A stretch of 64,000 nt of DNA from the NCBI GenBank assembly GCA_963555825.3, contig CAUVXB020000001.1, positions 448,001 to 512,000 of the forward strand. Direction: 5' to 3'. The notes beneath the pieces were generated by a model that was given only the letters and a program-made list of their open reading frames with translations, did not search any database and was not told the origin of the DNA. The DNA is from Alphaproteobacteria bacterium (GTDB taxonomy: Bacteria; Pseudomonadota; Alphaproteobacteria; JAAXGF01). A program made the position numbers and the translations under genes. Positions 6,453 to 59,425 of the stretch are shown in pieces (within the stretch, counting starts at the first letter, position 1; the number at the start of each line of letters is the position of its first letter).

Positions 6453-8796
6453 CTATTTTCCGAAAACCTTGTCGAGCCCGAACAGCTTGTTCAGGCCATA
6501 GAGGATGGCCAGCGTGGCGATCAGCAGGACGACGCCCAGCGCGCTCGCCGCGCCCCAATTGGCGTAGAGGTTGATCGACGTTTCGATGCGCTGCGCCCAC
6601 ATGATGATCTTGCCGCCGCCCAACAGCGCCGGGGTGACGTAGAAGCCGAGGCAGAGCACGAAGACGAGCACGACGCCGGCGAACAGCCCGGGCAGCGACA
6701 GCGGGAAGAAGACCCGCCAGAAGGCGTTGATCGGACTGGCGCCAAGATTGGCCGCGGCCTTGAGGAAATCACGATCGATCGACTTCATCGCGGCATAAAG
6801 CGGCAGCACGAGGAAGGGCAGCAGGATTTGCACCATGCCGATCACCGTGCCGGTGAAGTTGTGCACCAGCCGGAGCGGTTCGTCGATGATGCCCGTCTCG
6901 ATCAGCCAGCCGTTGATCACCCCCTTGCGCTGCAGTAGGACGAGCCAGGCATAGGTGCGCACGAGCAGCGAGGTCCAGAACGGCAACAGCACGAAGATCA
7001 TGCAGATGCCCGCCGCGCGTTTGCCGAGTTGCGACAACATATAGGCGAGCGGATAGCCCATCAGGATGCAAATGCCGGTGACGACGAAGCTGATCTCGAA
7101 GGTCGTGCGGAAAGTCTTGATGTAGGACTTCGAGCCGAACATCCGCATAATTCTCGAGCGTCCAGTTGCCCTGGACGTCGAAGTGAGTCGGACCCGATTT
7201 CCTTGGACACAGAATTGGCTTAATCGAAGTGTCCAAGGAGGACCGGAACATGACCGACAATTTTGAGAACAAAGTTGCTGTTGATGGGCCTGTGGTAAAC
7301 GAGGGCGAGCTTGGCTCGTCCACGTTTTCCCCGGGCCAGGTTTCGCCGGCAGGCCCGCTGGGACTTGGCCAGCGGTGGACGGTGACGCGCAAGCGTGAGG
7401 TTGCCCTGCGGCTTTTGCGTGGCGAGCCGGTGGAACTTTTGTCGCGGCAGTTGGGCGTGGAGATTTTCCGGCTCGAGCAGTGGCGTGAGAAGGCGATCGC
7501 CGGGATCGATGCCTCGCTCAAGGAACGCAAGGGCGATCCGGTGAAGGCGGAACTGGACATCGCCATGAAGCGGATCGGGGAGTTGATCATGCAGGTGGAA
7601 CTGCTGGAGGCCAAGACGGAGACGTCCGGCCCTTTGGGGCGGCGGAGGTCGCGGCGATGAGTGCCGCCACCTCTCCCGGCACGGGTTTGGCCTACGGCCT
7701 CCAGCGGGTCTGTGCGGCCTGGGGTTTTGCCCGTTCCTCGTTCTACGCCATGAAATCCCGGCAGCAGGCCACCGCTGAGCGCCCACCAGCAAAGCGCCGG
7801 GGACCGAAGCCCTCGATCTCGGACGAGGCTCTGCTGGTGGCCATCGAGGCCGACCTGGAGGCATCCCCCTGGGAGGGCGAGGGACACCGCAAGGTCTGGG
7901 CTCGGCTTCGGGTCTGTCGTGGCATCCGTGTTTCCCGCAAGCGGGGGCTCCGGGTGATGCGCGAGAACAACCTGCTCTCGCCCCATCGCTGCCGCCGCCG
8001 TGGCGGAAATCCCCATGTCGGTGAGATCATCACCCATGCCCCCAACCTCATGTGGGGCACGGACGGCGTTCGGGTGTTCACGGTGGACGACGGCTGGGGC
8101 TGGATATTCACCGCCATCGAGCATTGGAACGCCGAGTGCGTCGGCTGGCATGTGTGCAAGCGAGGCGACCGCTTCGCCGCCCTTCAGCCGATCTCCATGG
8201 GGCTTGCGAGGCTGTATGCCTCGACCTCCGCCGGTGCGGCGCGGGGGCTGGCCTTGCGGATGGATCACGGCTCCCAGTATCTGTCGGACCACTTCACCAA
8301 CCAGATCAAGTTCTGGGGCATCCAGCCGTCCTACGCCTTCGTCGAACAGCCCCAGACCAACGGCGTCGCCGAGAGGTTCAATCGCACGCTCAAGGAACAG
8401 ATCATCCATGGCCGCATCTACCGCAACATCGCGGAGCTGCGGAACGCCGTCCGCGGGTTCGTCGAACAGTACAATGCCCAGTGGATCGTGGAGAAGAACG
8501 GCTACCTGAGCCCCGCTCAAGCTCGTCAGGCGTGGCACACCGCGATGTCACTCAGGCCCGCCGCATGAGACAAACTTGTGTCCAAGGAACCGGGTGCGAT
8601 ACACCTGGACGTCGAAGAACGACAGCCACATGAGCCAGCCGACAGGCAAGAACAGAATAAGCAGGACGAGGAACAGCGAGGGCGAGCACAGCGCGAAGAC
8701 GCTCTGATGCTCCCGCTTGGCGTCCTTGGTCAATCCCTCGGCGTTTTCGCGACTGGCCGGGACCGCCGCGACCTGGTCCGTGGTAATCGCCGTCAT
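6453..8796 (-). pseudogene. PotB-like ABC permease, split by an IS3-like element and also frameshifted near 7146
   Basis: N-term 8604-8796 (..WLSFFDVQ) rejoins GNWTLENY at 7183; frame then shifts into RMFGSKSY; PFWTSLLVRTYAW motif. Confidence 0.85.
7184..8603 (+). mobile_element. IS3-like element copy 1 (orfA 7229-7660, orfB 7657-8568), 14-bp target duplication
   Basis: Ends TGAGTCGGACCCGATTTCCTTGGACAC / GTGTCCAAGGAACCGGGTGCGATACA; DDE core (WGTD, MDHGSQY, AERFNRTLKE); DR cctggacgtcgaag at 7170-7183 and 8604-8617. Confidence 0.95.
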
Positions 8797-14110: not shown

Positions 14111-16079
14111 ATGATTGACCATAACGCAACCTCGCTCGCGACGGCGCTGTTCGCGCGCAAGGGCGAAGCCATACCGTCGCCTGCCGTCAGCTATGTCAGC
14201 ATCACCCAGCTCGAGGCCGGAACCGACGAACGGCACGCGCCTGCGTCGCTTTGCCTGATCGGCGAAACCGATCTCGAGCCGACCGTCGACGACGCCGAGC
14301 GACCGCTGTCGTCGTTGATTCACAGGCACCGTCCGCGCCCGGCGCCCGTGACCCTGTCGGCCCCGGCCCCGGCCAACGACACGACGACGGCGGCGTGGGA
14401 GCGGTCCGACCGCCAGGGCACGACGATCGATATCATGCGCTATCTCAGCGTCGCATCGGGTCGTGCCAACGACGATGCCGGCAGTGGTGAGCGCGTGGTC
14501 GAGACGAGCTATGTCCGAAAGTTGGTGACGGAGCTATCAGGCGGCGTGTTTGGTTATCTTGATTCCGTCCTTGAACGGCACTCCTTCGACGAGTTCGGCG
14601 AGTTGATTTGATCCGTCCAGCTTCCGCCATTTCCGCCTGGCACTCAAGATCAGTTTGAAGGCCATGGCGAGCGCCGTCTTGCGGCTCAGGCACCCCTTGG
14701 TCTTCACGGTCCTCAGGCGCACCGTGGCGAAGGTGCTTTCGATGGGGTTGGTGGTGCGGATGTGCTTCCAGTGCTCGGCCGGGAAGTCGTAGAAGCTCAG
14801 CAGGCGTTCACGGTCCTTGACCAGGCGCTCTGCGGCCTTGTGGTATTTTGCGCCGTAGGCTGCGATGAAGAAGTCGAAGGCGGCTTCGGCGTCGGCCCTA
14901 GTCTCGGCCATCCAGATGTCGTGCAGATGGCCCTTGGCTTTGGCCTGCAGGGATTTGGGCATCTGGTTGAGCACGTTGGCGGTCTTGTGGACCCAGCAAC
15001 GCTGCACCCTGGTCTCTCCGTAAACCTCGCGTAGCGCCTTCCAGAAGCCCAAGGCGCCGTCGCCGACGGCCAACTCGGGGCCGGTCTCCAAGCCCCGGCG
15101 CTTGAGATCAAGCAGCAGTTCCTTCCAGCTTTGCGCGCTCTCTCGATAACCGTCGACCATGCCGACGATGTCCTTGTTGCCCATGGCGTCGGCGCCGATG
15201 ATCACCAGAACACACTGTTTGTCATGGTCCATGCGAGGCGAGAAGTAGACCCCGTCGGCCCAAAAATAGACGTAGCGCCGAGCCGAAAGGTCGCGCTTTT
15301 GCCAGGCTTCGTATTCGTCCCACCAGACCGCTTTCAGCCGGCCAATGGTGCTGGCCGTCAGGCCCGGCGCGTCCGGTCCCAGCAGCGCCGCCAGGGCCTC
15401 CGAAAAGTCGCCGCTGGAGATGCCCTTCAGATAAAGCCAGGGCAGAAGCGCCTCGACCGACTTGGCGCGCCTGAGATAAGGCGGCAGGATCGATGACGTG
15501 AAACGGATGCGCCCGCCCGTGGCCTGTGGATCTCGGTCTCGCACTCTTGGCCGCTTCACCGTCACAGCTCCGATCCCGGTCTGAACCTCGCGTTCCGGCA
15601 TGTGCCCGTGACGGACAATACGGCGCCGGCCCGAAGCGTCGGTCAAATCGGCATGGGCTTCAATATGGGCGGCAACTTCCGCTTCAATCGCCTGGCCAAG
15701 CAACTGCCGGGCGCCGGCGCGCAATATCTCCGTCAGCGGATCGTCGGAAAATGACTCTGGCTGGCGCAACGCAACAACTGTATCGTCTTTCATGGCGTAT
15801 CCCTTTCTTCGGAAAATTGGCGTCTTCATCAACGCCAGGATACGCCGCCTTCATTCTCCATCACCAAGATTCAGCTATAGCTCGGTCGAGACGCCGCCGC
15901 TCCGACTGTCGCGTCGCCACAAGCGCAAGCAACTCACCATGCGTCTCGGCTACGACGCGTTCCGGCATCTCCAGAACATCTCGTACGTATCGGACGCGAC
16001 GTACCAGAGCCTGCTCGAGGCCGCGGTGTTGGCCTACCTCGAGACCCTCGATACGGAACACGCCGCCGAGGCGGGATAG
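14111..16079 (+). pseudogene. ParA-associated protein (probable C-terminal ribbon-helix-helix), split by IS256
   Basis: ALFARKGEA N-terminal motif; removing the IS gives ..ERVVET-PPLRLSRRHKRKQLTMRLG..YQSLLEAAVLAYL*. Confidence 0.7.
14506..15883 (-). mobile_element. IS256 family element (tnp 14537-15793)
   Basis: Imperfect TIR GAGCTAT..; 9-bp DR ggtcgagac at 14497-14505 and 15884-15892; WADG, QRCWVH, RTTNPIES. Confidence 0.95.
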
Positions 16080-20759: not shown

Positions 20760-22985
20760 ATGACCGAGCACGAGATTGAGGACTGGCCACAGTTTGTACG
20801 GATCGCCGAAGCGCTAGACGTTGGTGACCCGTCAAAATTGACGTATGCCTTCCGGGGGCACTCCAATGATGGTTGGGAGCTTCTGCCGTCACTTCTTCGA
20901 GGTATAGGCCAGGAGATTTCAGAAGAACGGGCGCTCGATAACGAGGGCAGCGCGCGAGTAGAGTTTCTGGCACAGGCGCACTTACATCTCAATCCACAAA
21001 CGTTGCCGGCACAGAAAGACGCCATCGGTTGGTGGACATTGATGCAGCATCACGGTGCTCCGACCCGCCTCCTGGACTGGACCGAATCCTTCTATGTCGC
21101 GGCGTACTTCGCGGTTGCAGGTCAGCCAGAATCGGCGGGCGCAATTTGGTGCGTCCAGGTAGGGGTGGCTCATGAGCAAGCGGTAGCGAAATACAAATGG
21201 GCCGGGAATCCGGAAACCGTCAGAGAGATTGAGAAGGAATACCTCCAATCCGGTGCGCCGCAGGTAGTGCATTTCCTGCATACAAAATTGAAAACAAATC
21301 GGGTCGTTGTTCAGCAGGGGCTGTTCAGCATCTGTCGTAACGTGCTCGGGGATCACGGTGCTATCCTCGAAGAGACCATGCCGGCTGGCGGAGGAAAAAT
21401 GGTCTTCCAAAAATTTGTGATCCCCGCTCATCTCAAGACCGTTATTTGTATCGCACCCGGTTCCTTGGACACAAGTTTGTCTCATGCGGCGGGCCTGAGT
21501 GACATCGCGGTGTGCCACGCCTGACGAGCTTGAGCGGGGCTCAGGTAGCCGTTCTTCTCCACGATCCACTGGGCATTGTACTGTTCGACGAACCCGCGGA
21601 CGGCGTTCCGCAGCTCCGCGATGTTGCGGTAGATGCGGCCATGGATGATCTGTTCCTTGAGCGTGCGATTGAACCTCTCGGCGACGCCGTTGGTCTGGGG
21701 CTGTTCGACGAAGGCGTAGGACGGCTGGATGCCCCAGAACTTGATCTGGTTGGTGAAGTGGTCCGACAGATACTGGGAGCCGTGATCCATCCGCAAGGCC
21801 AGCCCCCGCGCCGCACCGGCGGAGGTCGAGGCATACAGCCTCGCAAGCCCCATGGAGATCGGCTGAAGGGCGGCGAAGCGGTCGCCTCGCTTGCACACAT
21901 GCCAGCCGACGCACTCGGCGTTCCAATGCTCGATGGCGGTGAATATCCAGCCCCAGCCGTCGTCCACCGTGAACACCCGAACGCCGTCCGTGCCCCACAT
22001 GAGGTTGGGGGCATGGGTGATGATCTCACCGACATGGGGATTTCCGCCACGGCGGCGGCAGCGATGGGGCGAGAGCAGGTTGTTCTCGCGCATCACCCGG
22101 AGCCCCCGCTTGCGGGAAACACGGATGCCACGACAGACCCGAAGCCGAGCCCAGACCTTGCGGTGTCCCTCGCCCTCCCAGGGGGATGCCTCCAGGTCGG
22201 CCTCGATGGCCACCAGCAGAGCCTCGTCCGAGATCGAGGGCTTCGGTCCCCGGCGCTTTGCTGGTGGGCGCTCAGCGGTGGCCTGCTGCCGGGATTTCAT
22301 GGCGTAGAACGAGGAACGGGCAAAACCCCAGGCCGCACAGACCCGCTGGAGGCCGTAGGCCAAACCCGTGCCGGGAGAGGTGGCGGCACTCATCGCCGCG
22401 ACCTCCGCCGCCCCAAAGGGCCGGACGTCTCCGTCTTGGCCTCCAGCAGTTCCACCTGCATGATCAACTCCCCGATCCGCTTCATGGCGATGTCCAGTTC
22501 CGCCTTCACCGGATCGCCCTTGCGTTCCTTGAGCGAGGCATCGATCCCGGCGATCGCCTTCTCACGCCACTGCTCGAGCCGGAAAATCTCCACGCCCAAC
22601 TGCCGCGACAAAAGTTCCACCGGCTCGCCACGCAAAAGCCGCAGGGCAACCTCACGCTTGCGCGTCACCGTCCACCGCTGGCCAAGTCCCAGCGGGCCTG
22701 CCGGCGAAACCTGGCCCGGGGAAAACGTGGACGAGCCAAGCTCGCCCTCGTTTACCACAGGCCCATCAACAGCAACTTTGTTCTCAAAATTGTCGGTCAT
22801 GTTCCGGTCCTCCTTGGACACTTCGATTAAGCCAATTCTGTGTCCAAGGAAATCGGGTCCGACTCAGCAAGACCGTTATTCTACGGCGCCTGAGAAACAT
22901 GAACATCACCGCGAACTCACTTTTTCCAGGTCTTGATGGTCTAGGGATGTCTATCCGCGAGTACGTTCAGGTGATGCTCGGTTAG
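20760..22985 (+). pseudogene. FRG domain protein split by IS3-like copy 2
   Basis: FRGH..LLPSL, MQHHGAPTRLLDWT, QQGLF; C-term LRRLRNMNITANSLFPGLDG resumes at 22881. Confidence 0.9.
21447..22866 (-). mobile_element. IS3-like element copy 2
   Basis: Same ends and proteins as copy 1; DR caagaccgttatt (13 bp) at 21434-21446 and 22868-22880 plus one extra or mismatched base. Confidence 0.95.
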
Positions 22986-44325: not shown

Positions 44326-44507
44326 CGCTGTCTGGATGTGCGCCCCCGTATATCAGCGCATCATGCCTGCGTTGCGCGCGACAGCAGATCTTGGCGCGCG
44401 GTCATCGGCACAGCCGCTTTTACCCTACGCGGACATCGGCAACATCGCGCACTCCGTGTGCTAACGTACCCGCCACCGCTCTCATCCACCGGGAATGCAG
44501 CTAAGCA

Positions 44508-45397
44508 TGTTCACCCGTCGGACACTGGCGCTCGTGTTTGCCATCCTGTGGCCGTGGTCCTCAAGCCTGCACGCCCAGTCCGAGGCGTTGATGGAGGCCT
44601 ACCGCCAGGGCGAAACCCTCTACCATGCGGGCCAATACGAGCAAGCCATCCCGCTCTTTCGTAAGGCGCTTGAACTCGGTGAGCAGGAGTTCGGCCCTGA
44701 GCATCCCACGACGGCGGCCTTGCTGAACAGCCTGGCCCTGCCGTACGAAAAGCAGGGCCGCTACGAGGCGGCGGAGCCGCTCTACAAGCGGGCGCTGGCA
44801 GTGCGAGAGAAGGTTCTCGGGCCGGACCATCCCGATGTCGCCACGAGCCTCAACAACCTCGCCGTGCTGTACGGTGACCAGGGTCGCTACGAGGCGGCGG
44901 AGCCGCTCCACAGGCGGGCGCTGGCCATCCGGGAGAAGGCTCTCGGGCCGGAACATCCCCATGTCGCCCTAAGCCTCAACAACCTCGCCGCGCTGTACTT
45001 AGCCCGGGGCCGCTACCAGGCGGCAGAGCCGCTCTACAAGCGGGCGCTGGCGATCCGGGAGAAGGCTCTCGGGCCGGAACATCCCCATGTCGCCCTAAGC
45101 CTCAACAACCTCGCCGCGCTGTACTTAGCCCGGGGCCGCTACCAGGCGGCAGAGCCGCTCTACAAGCGGGCGCTGGCGATCCGGGAGAAGGCTCTCGGGC
45201 CGGAACATCCCGATGTCGCCGCGAGCCTCAACAGCCTGGCCCTGCTGTACAAAAGGCAGGGTCGCTACGAGGCGGCAGAGCCGCTCTACAAGCGGGCGCT
45301 GGCAGTGCGAGAGAAGGTTCTCGGGCCGGACCATCCCTCGGTCGCCCTAAGCCTCAACAACCTCGCCGTGCTGTACTACACCCAGGGTCGCTACGAG
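44508..45397 (+). pseudogene. Secreted 42-aa TPR repeat protein, truncated by IS256
   Basis: Signal peptide; tandem 126-bp GPEHP.VA.SLNNLA.LY..QGRY.AAEPLYKRAL units, two nearly identical; stops at the IS256 end GAGCTATAACC. Confidence 0.85.
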
Positions 45398-48300
45398 GAG
45401 CTATAACCGAATCTTGACGGGGCGGTAAAAAGTCGATTCCTCATGAGAGTCGGCTGGATTATAATTGTGCATGTTTACTTTACGCGACCGACGGACTGGG
45501 GAATTGTTTGATCGCTGGTCCGATTTCGGGGACAAACGTCGGCGCCTGATGGAGCAATCCTGGGCCGGGGTTTTTCGGAACCATCTGCTTGTCGAACTTC
45601 CGGTTGACGATCTTTGCCGTCACCTTGATGAACGCATGGGCCGACCATCGAAGGATCTACACGTTGTCATCGGGGTCTTGCTTTTGCAGCAGCTGCACGA
45701 TCTGAGCGATGCAGAGACCGTCGAGGCCCTGGCCTTCAATATGGCGTGGCACTATGCCTTGGACGTGCGCAGCGAAGCGGACAGCTATTTCTGTGAGAAA
45801 ACCCTGCGCAACTATCGCCGTCTGTTTATCGAACAAGGTCTCGATGAATTGCTGTTCCGGTGTTTGACGGATCGGCTGGTGCAGGGGTTCTCTGTCGATA
45901 CCAGCCACCAACGCATGGATTCGACGGCCCTTCGTTCGGCAATGCGGGCGCTGACACGACTTGGTATCGTTGTTGAGAGCATCTCGAAGTTTGCCCGTGA
46001 GCTTGAGCGATATCATCCCGGTCTGCACGAGCAGATCAGCAAGGAGGTGATCCGCCGCTATGTCGATCGCGAGGGTAATGGCGCGTTCGCGAATACGGCG
46101 CCGAGTGTTTCAAAACGGCGCCTCGGCGAAGCGGGTCAGTATCTCCTAGCCCTGGTGCTGCAATTCCGTGACACGGCGGCGGCAAAGCTTTCCAGTTTTG
46201 CGATCCTGGAGAGGGTTCTGCGCGATCAGTTCGAGATCGTTGATGATGAGTATGGCGATCGTGACGCAACGCGCGCCGCGATTCGAGATCCAAAGGATGT
46301 GCCGTGCGATACCGTCGGCAATCCGGCCGACCCGGACGCGAGCTACAACGCGCACAAGGGTCAAGGATACATGGCGCAGATCGTCGAAACCTATTGTGAA
46401 GATGTCAGTAACGAGGCGGTTGCCGCGACACCGGACCTCATCACCCACGTGGAGGTCCACAAGATGACGGTGCATGACGGCCATCGCTTAGCCGATGCGC
46501 TGGATGATCTGAGCGAGCGCGCGCTGACGCCGGCGGTGATGCTGGGTGATTCACATTACGGTTCCAGTGACAACATGGCTCTGACGCGCGAACAGAACAT
46601 CAATCTCGTGGCGCCCGCACGACCGCCGAAAGGCGCCGTCTCGGGACGGTTGACGTTGGAGGATTTCACTCTCAACGAAGAAGGCTTGGTCTTGCGCTGT
46701 CCCAATAACGTCGAACCGGTTTCAGCCTCGCTCGCCAAAGCCAAGCTGCAGGCCCGTTTCGACCTCTCCATCTGCCAAAAATGTCCCGATATACTGCGAT
46801 GTCCCGTGCAGGCGGCCAAGCGTGACGGCCAATTTTCCCGCTTTCAATATACCCCGGCCAGGGCTGCCAACCAAAAGCGCCGGCTTTATGAACAAAGCGA
46901 TGCCTTCCGCAACGTCTACAGATGGCGGGCCGGCATAGAAGCGACCATGTCGCGATTAAAGTACCAGATGAACCTGGCTCACCTACGCATTCGCGGCATG
47001 CCGGCCATGCGCTACGTGGTCAATCTGCGTGCCCTCGGCCTCAATATCCGACGCTGCGCGGCAATCGCACCATAAAAAACGAAGCCAAGGAGAAGCCAAG
47101 GGTAGGTAATATCAGGTTTTATCCACCAGCAACGCGGAGACAGGCAAATATTCTTCACCGAACCGCAAAGACCTGTACAAGCACGCCATCGGCCAACAAC
47201 TTTTTATCGCCCCGTCGAATCTTGTGTACGGCGTTGAAATGAAGGCGGCGTATCCTGGTGATTGTTGATGTCACCACTTGAGCTAAGCCAAGGAAGGATA
47301 CGCCATGAAAGAGAATACCGTTGTTGCTTTTCAAAACCCATCTGATTTTCAGAAAGATCCGTTGACGGAAGTCCTACAAGCTGGAGCTCGCGAGTTGTTG
47401 GCCCAAGCCGTTGAGGCCGAGGTCTCCGTGTTTTTGGGTAGCCATGCGGCGCTTGTTGACGCCGCCGGCCGCCGCCGGGTTGTCCGCAATGGATATCTGC
47501 CGGAACGCTTCATCCAGACCGGGATCGGCCCGGTGAGCGTGCGCCAACCCCGTGTGCGGGACCGGGGGGACGGCGCCATCCGCTTCACGTCGGCGATCCT
47601 GCCGCGCTATCTGCGCCGCGCCAAGAGCCTGGAAGACCTTTTGCCATGGCTGTATCTGAAGGGCATTTCCACCGGCGACTTCGGGGAAGCCTTGGCGGCG
47701 CTCCTGGGGAGCTCCGCGCCGGGGCTTTCGGCCTCCACGATCACCCGGCTGAAAGAGGTCTGGGGGGTTGAGGCGGAGCGCTGGCAACGGCGCGACCTCA
47801 CGGCCAAGCGCTACGTCTATTTCTGGGTGGACGGCATCTATTTCAGCGCCCGCATGGAGGAAGAGAAGCAGTGCATCCTGGTGATCGTCGGGGCCACGGA
47901 CAAGGGACAGAAGGAACTGATCGCCATCGCCGACGGCTATCGCGAAAGTGAGCAGTCCTGGCTCGAAGTTCTGCTCGATCTCAAGCGGCGCGGCCTTGAA
48001 ATGGGTCCGCAACTGGCGCTCGGCGACGGCGCGCTCGGCTTCTGGAAGGCGCTCCGCCAAGTCTACCCAGGCGCCCGCGAGCAACGCTGCTGGGTTCACA
48101 AGACGGGCAACGTCTTGAACAAGCTGCCCAAGGGTCTGCAAAAGAAAGCCAAGGGGCGCCTGCAAGACATCTGGATGGCCGAAACCAGGAAGGATGCCGA
48201 GAGCGCCTTCGACTTCTTCCTGGAAGCCTACGGGCCGAAGTACGACAAGGCCGCGGCCTGCCTGGCCAAGGACCGCGACGTCCTGCTGACGTTCTACGAC

Positions 48301-48570
48301 TTCCCCGCCGAGCACTGGAAGCATGTACGCACGACCAACCCCATCGAGAGCACGTTCGCCACGGTTCGTCTGCGCACCTACCGGACCAAGGGCTGCCTGT
48401 CGCGCAAGACGGCGATGGCCATGGTCTTCAAACTATGCCAGTGCGCTCAGAGAAAATGGAGAAAACTCGATGGATCGAACCATCTCGCCGAGATCATTCG
48501 CGGCGTCAAATTCGTAGATGGAGAACGCCAGGATCGCGCCGCCGCATGATCAGCCCATACACAACTTTTG
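45398..48570 (+). mobile_element. IS256 family element 2 (tnp 47305-48549), both TIRs interrupted by IS1182-like copies
   Basis: Restored left end gagctataaccgaatcttgtgtacgg..aaggcggcgtatcctgg resembles the end of the IS256 at 14.5-15.9 kb; WVDG, QRCWVH, RTTNPIES. Confidence 0.9.
45416..47216 (+). mobile_element. IS1182/IS5-like element copy 1 (tnp 45465-47075)
   Basis: TIR GACGGGGCGGTAAAAAGT / ACTTTTTATCGCCCCGTC; DR (c)gaatctt(g); GRPS..LLQ..LSD N-domain, DPDASY, DSHYG, YRWRAGIEAT. Confidence 0.88.
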
Positions 48571-50100
48571 ACGGGGCGGTAAAAAGTTGTTGGCCGATGG
48601 CGTGCTTGTACAGGTCTTTGCGGTTCGGTGAAGAATATTTGCCTGTCTCCGCGTTGCTGGTGGATAAAACCTGATATTACCTACCCTTGGCTTCTCCTTG
48701 GCTTCGTTTTTTATGGTGCGATTGCCGCGCAGCGTCGGATATTGAGGCCGAGGGCACGCAGATTGACCACGTAGCGCATGGCCGGCATGCCGCGAATGCG
48801 TAGGTGAGCCAGGTTCATCTGGTACTTTAATCGCGACATGGTCGCTTCTATGCCGGCCCGCCATCTGTAGACGTTGCGGAAGGCATCGCTTTGTTCATAA
48901 AGCCGGCGCTTTTGGTTGGCAGCCCTGGCCGGGGTATATTGAAAGCGGGAAAATTGGCCGTCACGCTTGGCCGCCTGCACGGGACATCGCAGTATATCGG
49001 GACATTTTTGGCAGATGGAGAGGTCGAAACGGGCCTGCAGCTTGGCTTTGGCGAGCGAGGCTGAAACCGGTTCGACGTTATTGGGACAGCGCAAGACCAA
49101 GCCTTCTTCGTTGAGAGTGAAATCCTCCAACGTCAACCGTCCCGAGACGGCGCCTTTCGGCGGTCGTGCGGGCGCCACGAGATTGATGTTCTGTTCGCGC
49201 GTCAGAGCCATGTTGTCACTGGAACCGTAATGTGAATCACCCAGCATCACCGCCGGCGTCAGCGCGCGCTCGCTCAGATCATCCAGCGCATCGGCTAAGC
49301 GATGGCCGTCATGCACCGTCATCTTGTGGACCTCCACGTGGGTGATGAGGTCCGGTGTCGCGGCAACCGCCTCGTTACTGACATCTTCACAATAGGTTTC
49401 GACGATCTGCGCCATGTATCCTTGACCCTTGTGCGCGTTGTAGCTCGCGTCCGGGTCGGCCGGATTGCCGACGGTATCGCACGGCACATCCTTTGGATCT
49501 CGAATCGCGGCGCGCGTTGCGTCACGATCGCCATACTCATCATCAACGATCTCGAACTGATCGCGCAGAACCCTCTCCAGGATCGCAAAACTGAAAAGCT
49601 TTGCCGCCGCCGTGTCACGGAATTGCAGCACCAGGGCTAGGAGATACTGACCCGCTTCGCCGAGGCGCCGTTTTGAAACACTCGGCGCCGTATTCGCGAA
49701 CGCGCCATTACCCTCGCGATCGACATAGCGGCGGATCACCTCCTTGCTGATCTGCTCGTGCAGACCGGGATGATATCGCTCAAGCTCACGGGCAAACTTC
49801 GAGATGCTCTCAACAACGATACCAAGTCGTGTCAGCGCCCGCATTGCCGAACGAAGGGCCGTCGAATCCATGCGTTGGTGGCTGGTATCGACAGAGAACC
49901 CCTGCACCAGCCGATCCGTCAAACACCGGAACAGCAATTCATCGAGACCTTGTTCGATAAACAGACGGCGATAGTTGCGCAGGGTTTTCTCACAGAAATA
50001 GCTGTCCGCTTCGCTGCGCACGTCCAAGGCATAGTGCCACGCCATATTGAAGGCCAGGGCCTCGACGGTCTCTGCATCGCTCAGATCGTGCAGCTGCTGC
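48570..50100 (-). mobile_element. IS1182/IS5-like element copy 2, inverted and 5'-truncated
   Basis: Near-identical reverse complement of ~45686-47216; cut by IS3-like copy 3. Confidence 0.9.
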
Positions 50101-51520
50101 TGAGTCGGACCCGATTTCCTTGGACACAGAATTGGCTTAATCGAAGTGTCCAAGGAGGACCGGAACATGACCGACAATTTTGAGAACAAAGTTGCTGTTG
50201 ATGGGCCTGTGGTAAACGAGGGCGAGCTTGGCTCGTCCACGTTTTCCCCGGGCCAGGTTTCGCCGGCAGGCCCTCTGGGACTTGGCCAGCGGTGGACGGT
50301 GACGCGCAAGCGTGAGGTTGCCCTGCGGCTTTTGCGTGGCGAGCCGGTGGAACTTTTGTCGCGGCAGTTGGGCGTGGAGATTTTCCGGCTCGAGCAGTGG
50401 CGTGAGAAGGCGATCGCCGGGATCGATGCCTCGCTCAAGGAACGCAAGGGCGATCCGGTGAAGGCGGAACTGGACATCGCCATGAAGCGGATCGGGGAGT
50501 TGATCATGCAGGTGGAACTGCTGGAGGCCAAGACGGAGACGTCCGGCCCTTTGGGGCGGCGGAGGTCGCGGCGATGAGTGCCGCCACCTCTCCCGGCACG
50601 GGTTTGGCCTACGGCCTCCAGCGGGTCTGTGCGGCCTGGGGTTTTGCCCGTTCCTCGTTCTACGCCATGAAATCCCGGCAGCAGGCCACCGCTGAGCGCC
50701 CACCAGCAAAGCGCCGGGGACCGAAGCCCTCGATCTCGGACGAGGCTCTGCTGGTGGCCATCGAGGCCGACCTGGAGGCATCCCCCTGGGAGGGCGAGGG
50801 ACACCGCAAGGTCTGGGCTCGGCTTCGGGTCTGTCGTGGCATCCGTGTTTCCCGCAAGCGGGGGCTCCGGGTGATGCGCGAGAACAACCTGCTCTCGCCC
50901 CATCGCTGCCGCCGCCGTGGCGGAAATCCCCATGTCGGTGAGATCATCACCCATGCCCCCAACCTCATGTGGGGCACGGACGGCGTTCGGGTGTTCACGG
51001 TGGACGACGGCTGGGGCTGGATATTCACCGCCATCGAGCATTGGAACGCCGAGTGCGTCGGCTGGCATGTGTGCAAGCGAGGCGACCGCTTCGCCGCCCT
51101 TCAGCCGATCTCCATGGGGCTTGCGAGGCTGTATGCCTCGACCTCCGCCGGTGCGGCGCGGGGGCTGGCCTTGCGGATGGATCACGGCTCCCAGTATCTG
51201 TCGGACCACTTCACCAACCAGATCAAGTTCTGGGGCATCCAGCCGTCCTACGCCTTCGTCGAACAGCCCCAGACCAACGGCGTCGCCGAGAGGTTCAATC
51301 GCACGCTCAAGGAACAGATCATCCATGGCCGCATCTACCGCAACATCGCGGAGCTGCGGAACGCCGTCCGCGGGTTCGTCGAACAGTACAATGCCCAGTG
51401 GATCGTGGAGAAGAACGGCTACCTGAGCCCCGCTCAAGCTCGTCAGGCGTGGCACACCGCGATGTCACTCAGGCCCGCCGCATGAGACAAACTTGTGTCC
51501 AAGGAACCGGGTGCGATACA
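50101..51520 (+). mobile_element. IS3-like element copy 3, no matching DR (adjacent deletion or rearrangement)
   Basis: Same ends and proteins as copies 1 and 2; flanks unrelated. Confidence 0.95.
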
Positions 51521-53597: not shown

Positions 53598-53738
53598 ATG
53601 GAACGCCGTTTGGCCGCGATCCTGTCCGCCGACGTGGTCGGGTATAGCCGGCTCATGGAGGCCGACGAGGAAGCAACGATCCGTGTACTGAGCGAATGCC
53701 GCCAGGTCATCGACGAGCTAGTCGCAAACCATCATGGC
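53598..53738 (+). pseudogene. Class III adenylate/guanylate cyclase N-terminal fragment, truncated by IS21
   Basis: MERRLAAILSADVVGYSRLMEADEEAT..HHG stops at the IS21 end. Confidence 0.85.
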
Positions 53739-54147
53739 TGAGAACGGCAGAGCAATAATCCCTCACTGAAGCGGCCGGTCGATCCGGCTGCGGCGGACCA
53801 AAATGGGACCGCGTATAGCCTTCTGTCAGGGTTGCTCTGACTGGAAGGCGGGGGGGATGTATCGGGTGGAGTTGTACGCACGGGTTCGGTGGGCGTGTCA
53901 TGTCGAGGGGATGAGCACCCGCGAGGCCTCGCGGGTGTTTGGTGTAGACCGCAAGACGGTCCGTAAGATGCTGTCGTTCTCGGTGCCGCCAGGGTATCGC
54001 CGAAGCGCGCCGCCGAGGCGGCCAAAGCTGGGTCCGTTCACGGGAATCATCGATCGGATCTTGGAAGACGATCGGACCAGCCACCGCAAGCAACGGCACA
54101 CTGCGAAGCGCATCTTCGACCGCCTCCGGGACGAGTACGGTTTCACG
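53739..54147 (+). mobile_element. IS21 left-end remnant (5' of istA)
   Basis: Near-identical to the reverse complement of 57833-58241. Confidence 0.9.
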
Positions 54148-57277: not shown

Positions 57278-59425
57278 GTGGCCCCGCAGCCGCGCCGCCT
57301 GGCGCCGGCGGCACTGTTCGGCGAGAGCATCGTTGAGGGCCGCGAAGCTCTCGGCACGCGGGACGGGGACCAGGAAGTTCCGCCGGATGAAGCCGACCAG
57401 TCCCTCGACCTTGCCCTTGTCGTTGCCCTTGCCCGGCCGGCCGAACCTGTCCTCGAACAGATAGTGGGACTGAAGCTCCGTGAAGACGCGCGTTCGCTGC
57501 CGCTTCCCATCGCCCAGGATCCGGGCAACCGCCAGCTTGGTGTTGTCGTACAGGATGGATCGGGGGACGCCGCCGAAGAAGGCAAACGCCGCGTTGTGGC
57601 CATCGCAGAATGCTTCGGTCGTCTCCGCCGGATAGGCCGCAACAAAGCAACCATCACTGTGGGGAAGGTCGAAGGCAAGGAAGTGGATCTTCCGTAACGC
57701 GCCGCCGATCACCGCCATCGCTTCGCCGAAGTCCGCCTGGGCGTGACCGGGGGAATGGGAGAGTGGCACGAACACCTCACGCGACCGAAGCCCCTGCTCA
57801 CGAACGTAGTCCTTCACGATGGTGTAGCCGCCCGTGAAACCGTACTCGTCCCGGAGGCGGTCGAAGATGCGCTTCGCAGTGTGCCGTTGCTTGCGGTGGC
57901 TGGTCCGATCGTCTTCCAAGATCCGATCGATGATTCCCGTGAACGGACCCAGCTTTGGCCGCCTCGGCGGCGCGCTTCGGCGATACCCTGGCGGCACCGA
58001 GAACGACAGCATCTTACGGACCGTCTTGCGGTCTACACCAAACACCCGCGAGGCCTCGCGGGTGCTCATCCCCTCGACATGACACGCCCGCCGAACCCGT
58101 GCGTACAACTCCACCCGATACATCCCCCCCGCCTTCCAGTCAGAGCAACCCTGACAGAAGGCTATACGCGGTCCCATTTTGGTCCGCCGCAGCCGGATCG
58201 ACCGGCCGCTTCAGTGGGGGATTATTGCTCTGCCGTTCTCAACCGACTGACAACATGCGATAATTCGTAGCCCCCCGGCGCACATTCCCTGTTATTTTGC
58301 ATTATTTCCCTGTAAATCGGGGGTTATCAGGGAATTTGGCCGGAGACGGGTTCGCTCCAGACTGGCTCCACCACCAATTATATCAATGGGTTATGTGAAT
58401 AATCCAAGAGATCAAAATTTATCAGGTAGCAAATAGGTAGCAGTAGCTTGGGTATCGCGGTGTCGGCGAACCAGTCCCTTGGGTCGGTGAAAACGTAGTA
58501 AAACGATGCTGTAGCCGGGAACTGAGGAACCGGTGACATCCGATGATCCGGTCGCGATCCGATATGACCAGAAAGGGTGCGCAAATCGTCCCTGTCCCAT
58601 CGCCCAACTGACGGGGAATGGCGTCTAGGGAAGGAGACTCGGTATGGGTTGTGTCGGTACGAACGGAGCCATACCAGGGACTCGGTGACATCGCGGCGTG
58701 CGAGACCAATCAAGCCCCTTACGATGTCAATCGGGTCGAAGCCAAATCACATTGTGATGGCCTCCGAGGCTCTCGAAGGTCGGACATCACTGATCCAGCA
58801 TCGCTCGGCACGGGGAAAACCTTGCCGGGTGATACGAGGCCCATGGGTGGTGGTGCCGGCGCAAATCGGGGGTCATGTCGTCGGCGCGCGCCACGTTCAA
58901 TCATTCGTCCACGAAACTGTGGAGCGTGCATGGTGGTCGATTTGGGCCGCCGCACCCGCGTGTGTCGACGAGCCGCCTGCCTGCCCAAATCGCGGTCCAT
59001 GACAAACCACGTGCGTCGATCCGACCGTGTGAATTTGCAACGGATAGTCAAAGGCCGGCCCCATAAAGCCAGTCCGCTCCCAATCTACATGGTCGTGATG
59101 TCGGGCGTCGGCTAGCCGGCCGCGCTGTTCCGCCGCCACCTCTCGGGCCACCACTCCAAGTTGTGCACGAGTTCCGGGCAAAAAGTCCGGCCAAACACGT
59201 GCGGTCGTTTACCCGCTTCGCAAATTTTCAGAAAAATAGCGCTCTCTACGCCTTGGTCGGCAGTTTTGCAAGTCAGCGGAATTGCCGCCCCCTCCGCGCA
59301 CTACGCAACCGAGTGTGGAGAAATCGATGCTCGCCCGTCGAAATTTTCCGAATTAACCTGTATTTTCTCACGCTGAGCCATTGCTGCAGGAAAGTATGCA
59401 AGCTGATATCATTACCATCAATTAA

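Follow-up and report, generated by a model that had tools for sequence, protein, structure and literature searches.

An IS1182-like insertion sequence found at a fixed position in the terminal inverted repeats of IS256-family elements in an alphaproteobacterial genome

The window analyzed here is a stretch of 64,000 nucleotides (nt) on contig CAUVXB020000001.1 (positions 448,001 to 512,000, forward strand) of the Alphaproteobacteria bacterium assembly GCA_963555825.3, a genome of 6.04 Mb in two contigs. Based on the sequence, the list of open reading frames (ORFs) and the repeat listing, the region between 45.4 and 51.5 kb of the window was found to be filled with nested insertion sequences (IS). 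Two IS256-family types are distinguished, referred to as IS256-A and IS256-B, and a 1,801-bp IS1182-like element was given the working name ISX. One IS256-A of the window carries an ISX copy in each of its terminal inverted repeats (TIRs), and both copies occupy the same repeat positions, 12–18. This doubly hit element is one case of a rule that extends across this genome and others.

The outer 18 nt of the IS256-A left repeat (45398..45415, + strand) are split off from the remainder of the element by ISX copy 1. A genome scan detected 25 uninterrupted left ends of IS256-A, all of which begin with these 18 nt, and the outermost 11 nt (45398-45408) read GAGCTATAACC. ISX copy 1 (45416..47216, + strand) is complete, as judged from the sequence and from the other copies in the genome, and has the ends G...C and TIRs of approximately 18 bp (GACGGGGCGGTAAAAAGT...). 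It contains a transposase ORF of 536 aa (45465..47075, + strand), which was recognized by Pfam and NCBIfam profile searches. The copy is bracketed by GAATCTT (45409-45415 and 47217-47223), and the inner part of the IS256-A left repeat (GTGTACGG...) resumes at position 47224. An earlier note on this sequence had recognized the duplication and its location in the left TIR, but had given it as the 9 bp cgaatcttg. The duplication was determined to be 7 bp, the additional C and G being the terminal bases of ISX, because sites with other neighboring bases are known (a T before the duplication in the B-type repeat and a T after it in locus L007).

The remainder of IS256-A starts at position 12 of the left repeat, stops at position 12 of the right one (47217..48569, + strand) and contains the transposase ORF of 414 aa (47305..48549, + strand; Pfam Transposase_mut, NCBIfam IS256). 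It is followed by ISX copy 2 (48570..50100, − strand), which is inverted and comprises ISX positions 271-1801 (inverted repeat I1; 99.87% identity by BLAST). The right end of copy 2 adjoins AACTTTT (48563-48569), a copy of the duplication, at positions 12-18 of the right repeat. This is the equivalent position in the opposite TIR, as had been proposed. The TIRs themselves are longer than the earlier note had seen. In uninterrupted copies of IS256-A, which are 1,375 bp in length, the left repeat is GAGCTATAACCGAATCTTGTGTACGG and the right repeat is GAGCTATTGTCAAAAGTTGTGTATGG, and the copies finish with the reverse complement of GAGCTATTGTCAAAAGTTGTGTATGG (BLAST and a scan for repeat starts in the whole genome).

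At ISX position 271, copy 2 is cut by a 1,420-bp IS3-type element with TG...CA ends and orfA/orfB (50101..51520, + strand). The missing left 270 nt of copy 2 are not present beyond the IS3-type element, where the sequence is unrelated. Accordingly, the statement that both ISX copies have their left ends facing outward holds for copy 1, while for copy 2 the outward left end is absent and could only be deduced.

Upstream of these elements lies a host ORF of 303 aa with a 126-bp tandem-repeat array (44495..45406, + strand, from the ORF list). It ends inside the IS256-A left repeat, and the gene is therefore interrupted by IS256-A. The array of 126-bp (42-codon) direct repeats, repeat family D1, spans positions 44597-45526. 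Judged by eye, the product looks like a TPR-type repeat protein.

For a genome-wide census, ISX copies were identified by BLAST and ISX termini by an end-motif search. The genome contains 26 full-length copies, which are 97.2-100% identical, and many fragments. The end-motif search gave 78 matches, three of which were unrelated sequences with three mismatches and were removed, resulting in 75 real termini. An IS256-A or IS256-B repeat half, cut at the same position, adjoins 72 of these 75 termini (39 outer halves and 33 inner halves). One more terminus lies beside a further GAGCTAT-type outer fragment, whose surroundings are rich in IS but lack an IS256 gene. The last two are the two sides of a single insertion outside of any IS, between a glutamine-synthetase-like gene and an amidohydrolase gene. 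Here, the target is a look-alike of the repeat and the duplication GATCATC is perfect. The site-specific targeting of IS256 ends suggested in the earlier note is thus borne out in this genome, and the same was found in other genomes. The collection of ISX flanks that it had proposed as a check revealed an enrichment of IS256 TIRs instead of unrelated sequences.

The left end of IS256-A was found intact 25 times and interrupted 13 times, the right end intact 27 times (plus two variants) and interrupted 14 times. For IS256-B, five left ends are intact and 10 are interrupted, and all 16 right ends are intact. In addition, the end-motif search gave two degenerate interrupted outer fragments, one of the A-left and one of the B-left type. 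Among 32 complete IS256-A bodies, 15 have both ends intact, eight carry ISX at the left end only, four at the right end only and four at both ends, the window copy being among the latter; one body falls into none of these groups.

Perfect 7-bp duplications were found at 24 full-length ISX copies, each located beside a different 12 nt of host sequence. By repeat type, these 24 simple insertions comprise 10 A-left, six A-right and eight B-left-type sites, and each of the three repeat types was taken in both orientations. Given about 110 IS256 repeat ends in 6.04 Mb, the probability of hitting such a site by chance is approximately 1.8e-5 per insertion, and approximately 1e-114 for 24 random insertions. 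The end of ISX facing the IS256 body is the left one in 17 cases and the right one in 17 cases, so there is no orientation bias. In locus L031 of another metagenome-assembled genome (MAG), an IS256 relative is hit in both repeats with the ISX left ends facing inward, which is the opposite of the window arrangement. The orientation specificity postulated from the window is therefore not supported.

A protein-based scan of one-genome-per-species contigs revealed 53 loci with ISX or relatives of 52-99% protein identity. In these loci, the ISX relatives are flanked by GAGCTAT-type outer fragments and GGTGA/GTGTA-type inner halves. With the 25-nt ISX left end alone, 12 metagenome contigs were obtained, and 15 of their 20 readable flanks are repeat halves (nine outer and six inner). 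A cultured strain is represented by Microvirga sp. VF16, whose plasmid pMVF16-1 carries one full ISX relative (L066, 2434-4253; 71% identity) and a fragment. The full relative is capped on both sides by 18-nt IS256-type outer fragments, and the unit lies within a perfect 9-bp direct repeat, ATGGAGTGG. This unit arose either by loss of an IS256 body at the site or by transfer of the capped ISX through an IS256 transposase.

In an Amylibacter-labeled MAG, ISX is present in at least 21 copies, which have 7-bp duplications. An IS256 transposase was not found within 3 kb at any of 21 ISX loci. The repeat consensus is matched at 9 or more of 15 positions by 13 of the 21 sites, compared with 0.8% of 20,000 random positions.

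Tandem head-to-tail copies separated by 7 bp, with a GAATCTT-like spacer, occur in L004 (2944-2952), L036 (3462-3470) and L051 (2746-2754). They are possibly due to re-insertion into a half-site regenerated by the first insertion or to an IS-dimer intermediate. ISX was not found in 20 other genomes, the nearest to the host among those searched (0 of 20); since most of them are fragmented MAGs, this carries little weight. ISX with 97-99% protein identity is present in MAGs labeled as Amylibacter, Paracoccaceae, Rhodospirillales, Alphaproteobacteria and Thermodesulfobacteriota (L001-L036, L043, L047, L049 and L052). These near-identical copies across taxon labels may reflect recent horizontal spread within one habitat (sponge communities) or cross-contamination during binning or assembly. 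The public runs that contain most of the window include sponge metagenomes (only X1 is listed as one) and several organism-labeled samples.

The ISX transposase has the architecture of the IS1182 family, namely a single DDE transposase with an N-terminal DUF772 domain (47.4 bits) and a DDE_Tnp_1/DDE_Tnp_1_6 catalytic region (35 and 50.7 bits, respectively), all above the Pfam cut-offs. Among six NCBIfam IS models, the best was IS1182 (NF033551) with 173.9 bits over residues 42-533, which is below the curated cut-off of 270 bits. With annotated plasmid-borne transposases of the IS1182 family, the ISX transposase shares 27-28% identity. IS1182-family elements are about 1.3–1.95 kb in length (range from ISfinder), and ISX fits the family in size, with 1,801 bp, and in its ends, with TIRs of about 18 bp. 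ISX is filed here as IS1182-like only, because its score is below the cut-off and its identity to family members is low, and it probably represents a separate deep clade related to the IS1182 family. The IS256-A transposase is of the Mutator type and was assigned to the IS256 family, with 199 bits for Pfam Transposase_mut and 320 bits for NCBIfam IS256 (NF033543; cut-off 150). In IS256-family elements, the terminal repeats are typically imperfect and about 26 bp long, and the target duplications measure 8-9 bp. IS256-A and IS256-B agree with this, having 26-nt repeats and 9-bp duplications, the latter perfect in 12 of 15 uninterrupted IS256-A copies and in the IS256-B of the window.

The reconstructed empty sites suggest a pattern with GAG-TATA near positions 1-8, CC at positions 10-11, GA at 12-13 and TT at 17-18, in most cases followed by G at 19. 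The G at position 19 was found in 15 of 19 sites from other genomes (manual count). The target of ISX therefore appears to be asymmetric and about 19 bp long, with the approximate motif GAGCTATA-N-CC-GA-NNN-TT-G, and corresponds to the outer two thirds of the TIRs in one IS256-family lineage. We consider it probable that ISX is an autonomous DDE insertion sequence whose transposase selects this motif by its DNA sequence, makes staggered cuts of 7 bp at repeat positions 12-18 and inserts in either orientation, and that the nested locus was built by successive insertions. In the proposed order, IS256-A would first have inserted into the repeat-rich host gene. Two independent ISX hits, one per terminal repeat, would have followed. 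Finally, the IS3-type element would have entered ISX copy 2, and a rearrangement there would have removed its outer 270 nt.

Several observations weigh against this interpretation. The motif was derived from occupied sites only, and its recognition by the ISX transposase is a reading of sequence data. In the Amylibacter-labeled MAG, eight of the 21 sites score below 9/15, showing that the preference is not absolute, and the 0 matches to the IS256 family model in this MAG are to be read with the fact that its completeness was not reported. Five of the 20 readable metagenome flanks look unrelated. At the right end of IS256-B (GAGCTATGTCCGAAAGTT), 14 of the 15 scored positions agree with the consensus, yet this end was hit in 0 of 16 cases, for which the sequence model gives no explanation. 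Some occupied sites in other genomes do have a G at position 8. Three ISX copies sharing a unique single-nucleotide polymorphism (SNP) at the right end all adjoin the A-left inner half by that end. Finally, the order of the elements at the window locus rests on one assembly.

An alternative is that a few founding insertions were followed by amplification of ISX-carrying IS256 units, which would be mobilized through the 18-19 outer nucleotides that they retain. The outer junction indeed regenerates the outer 18 nt plus a G, the unit in Microvirga lies within a 9-bp repeat of the IS256 type, and the three copies with the shared right-end SNP are also compatible with an IS256::ISX unit that moves. 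Furthermore, the outer flank could be read for nine IS256-A copies hit at one end, and seven of them keep a 9-bp IS256-type duplication across the composite, compared with 12 of 15 unhit copies. Resident copies that were later entered by ISX would be expected to show such duplications just as well. ISX is concluded to have entered resident IS256 elements and not the reverse. The SNP haplotypes of ISX are not specific for target classes. One haplotype spans three classes and single classes hold several haplotypes, and therefore the junctions are not simply copies of one founding event. At least eight target-by-orientation classes in this genome alone would still require targeting, and the same position is used in different repeats in other genomes. 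Amplification as the main cause is thus regarded as unlikely.

It was also considered that ISX is guided by a protein, being drawn to IS256 ends by bound IS256 transposase. A comparable case are the Tn5053-type "res hunters", which are said to use the resolvase of the target. Nearly all sites in the genome are indeed ends of elements with intact, identical transposase genes, and the asymmetry of the IS256-B ends (10/15 left versus 0/16 right; Fisher p = 6.8e-5) could reflect unequal occupancy of the two ends by transposase. On the other hand, no IS256-family match was obtained in the Amylibacter-labeled MAG, where ISX has at least 21 copies, each with a 7-bp duplication, and the non-IS look-alike site was used in the genome under study. 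In addition, the exact nucleotide of insertion is shared by three IS256 types that are unlike one another (69-100% transposase identity), and tandem arrangements ISX-7 bp-ISX are present in L004, L036 and L051, for which re-use of a half-site without the inner repeat is one possible reading. This makes recruitment by IS256 transposase improbable, and slightly more so than amplification. Of the two routes named in the earlier note, sequence or bound transposase, direct reading of the DNA sequence is most likely, because sites were used in a MAG without an IS256-family match and at a non-IS look-alike, and because the two IS256-B ends behave in opposite ways.

The IS256-B of the window (14506..15883, − strand; 1,378 bp; 9-bp duplication GGTCGAGAC) has two intact repeats. 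As previously described, this copy is unoccupied, but the idea that it was spared because of divergent TIRs is not supported, since the GAGCTATAGCTGAATCTT end of IS256-B is hit in 10 of 15 copies elsewhere. The other end, GAGCTATGTCCGAAAGTTGGTGACGG, was never found occupied by ISX, the window example being located at 14506-14531. A founder effect was rejected as a sufficient cause of the unhit right end, since ISX copies at B-left ends have at least four haplotypes, some of which also occur in other classes.

An assembly artefact, suggested by the high copy number of both repeats and by the window locus being unbridged by public-run contigs, or an insertion of IS256 beside resident ISX ends are both very remote explanations. 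Dozens of loci, each with unique flanks, show these junction types, which were also found in independent assemblies and, as loose ends, in the organism-labeled runs X15 and X20. Moreover, a 7-bp duplication of its own surrounds ISX, and the outer 11 nt of the IS256 repeat are located beyond it, which is characteristic of ISX entering IS256 and not of the opposite order. The public-run contigs extend only a few hundred bases within the repeats, and none of them bridges ISX-IS256-ISX at the window locus, so the order of the elements there was neither confirmed nor refuted by them. A contig of run X16 joins the outer IS256-A left repeat plus TG to the start of the IS3-type element (window position 45416 to 50101). 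This suggests that in the sample of that run the IS3-type element sits within an IS256-A repeat.

Insertion into the terminal repeats of another mobile element has been described for other systems. The elements IS4321 and IS5075 (IS1111 group, IS110 family) insert into the 38-bp terminal repeats of Tn21-family transposons by means of an RNA-guided DEDD recombinase, without a target duplication and in a single orientation. ISX resembles them in habitually targeting a fixed position in the TIR of another element, likely disabling that end. It differs from these IS1111-type elements by its DDE domains, its 7-bp duplication and the equal use of both orientations, and its target is an IS instead of a Tn3-family transposon. 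IS231A (IS4 family) prefers the ends of Tn4430. As in this case, ISX is a DDE element with a sequence-defined target in the terminal repeat of another transposon, although the transposase family and the target element are different.

By transposase profile and domain composition, the nearest family is IS1182, which includes IS1272 (TnSha1) and has a reputation for unusual targets. IS1272 inserts into hairpins or inverted repeats (PMC5678879, PMC4923244). A review cited in PMC4923244 states that some IS1182-family members target palindromes. IS1272 is described as having no primary-sequence specificity and generating no duplication while deleting part of the hairpin (PMC4923244). ISX, in contrast, leaves a clean duplication of 7 bp and appears to read a sequence that is asymmetric and not a palindrome. 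Targeting of hairpins or palindromes as in IS1272 was therefore rejected for ISX.

IS911 inserts next to sequences resembling its own ends. The same is described for IS30 (PMC9333248). A similar mechanism, in which the end-binding domain of the transposase chooses end-like targets, is conceivable for ISX, its basis being one shared 9-mer, AAAAGTTGT. This 9-mer occurs both at the right end of ISX and in the right repeat of IS256-A, where it spans the insertion site. Relative to the tips it is shifted by one base, and it is absent from GAATCTT-type targets. It may serve as a hint, to be followed as a lead only, that targeting occurs through the end-binding domain of the transposase.

No published report of an IS1182-like element targeting IS256 repeats was found in a search that did not cover ISfinder/TnPedia or subscription journals. 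The theme of TIR-targeting IS is known, and the pair of ISX and IS256 appears to be new. If the proposed specificity is correct, few ordinary DDE insertion sequences would be known to have a sequence-specific target as exclusive as that of ISX (about 19 bp, a single phosphodiester pair, 72 of 75 ends), and this target is itself an IS. The question is then how a DDE transposase reads a long asymmetric target. We infer that ISX benefits by gaining harmless, multi-copy landing sites, a "safe haven", and it probably disables the host element, which would make this a natural case of IS-on-IS parasitism. The targeting rule can also help annotators and assemblers to deal with nested IS junctions.

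An IS256 repeat split after position 18 is reasonably expected to be disabled for transposition, and an immobilization of IS256 by ISX, as put forward earlier, is plausible. The composite transposon that ISX was thought to build around IS256 found no support. No sign of a joint movement of ISX-IS256-ISX was detected, each ISX has its own 7-bp duplication, and copy 2 of the window is without its outer end.

ISX copies have evidently recombined with one another, because one full ISX copy has an A-right outer flank on one side and an A-left inner flank on the other, and because the arrangement outer fragment-ISX-outer fragment, with the IS256 body gone, was observed. The latter was found in three cases in this genome, in L032, L037, L045 and L050, in L058 and in Microvirga. 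The 1.8-kb ISX repeats at IS256 ends become substrates for deletions, inversions and loss of IS256 in an IS-laden symbiont genome from sponge metagenomes. A more far-reaching and doubtful idea is that members of the ISX clade are dedicated hyperparasites of one IS256 lineage, killing and exploiting it. Double hits in the same orientation would lead to recombination that deletes the IS256 body, leaving an ISX capped by 18-nt tips that could be moved in trans by IS256 transposase. If so, the capped ISX unit would gain a second way to travel.

The IS3-type element contains the domains rve, rve_3 and HTH_21 and two overlapping ORFs, and scored 150.4 bits with NF033516, slightly under the cut-off of 160 bits. 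The copy at 50101-51520 has no target duplication, whereas on the other contig a copy at the identical ISX position is flanked by a 14-bp duplication. A later rearrangement at the IS3-type element is therefore the best explanation for the truncation of ISX copy 2. In total, 79 full-length copies of this element were found in the genome, and further window copies are located at 7184-8603 and 21447-22866. IS3-family elements usually generate target duplications of 3-5 bp, and the duplications of 13-14 bp at many of the copies are atypically long.

In addition, the window contains a pair of 412-nt inverted repeats (53736-54147 and 57833-58244), which are 99% complementary and 3.7 kb apart.

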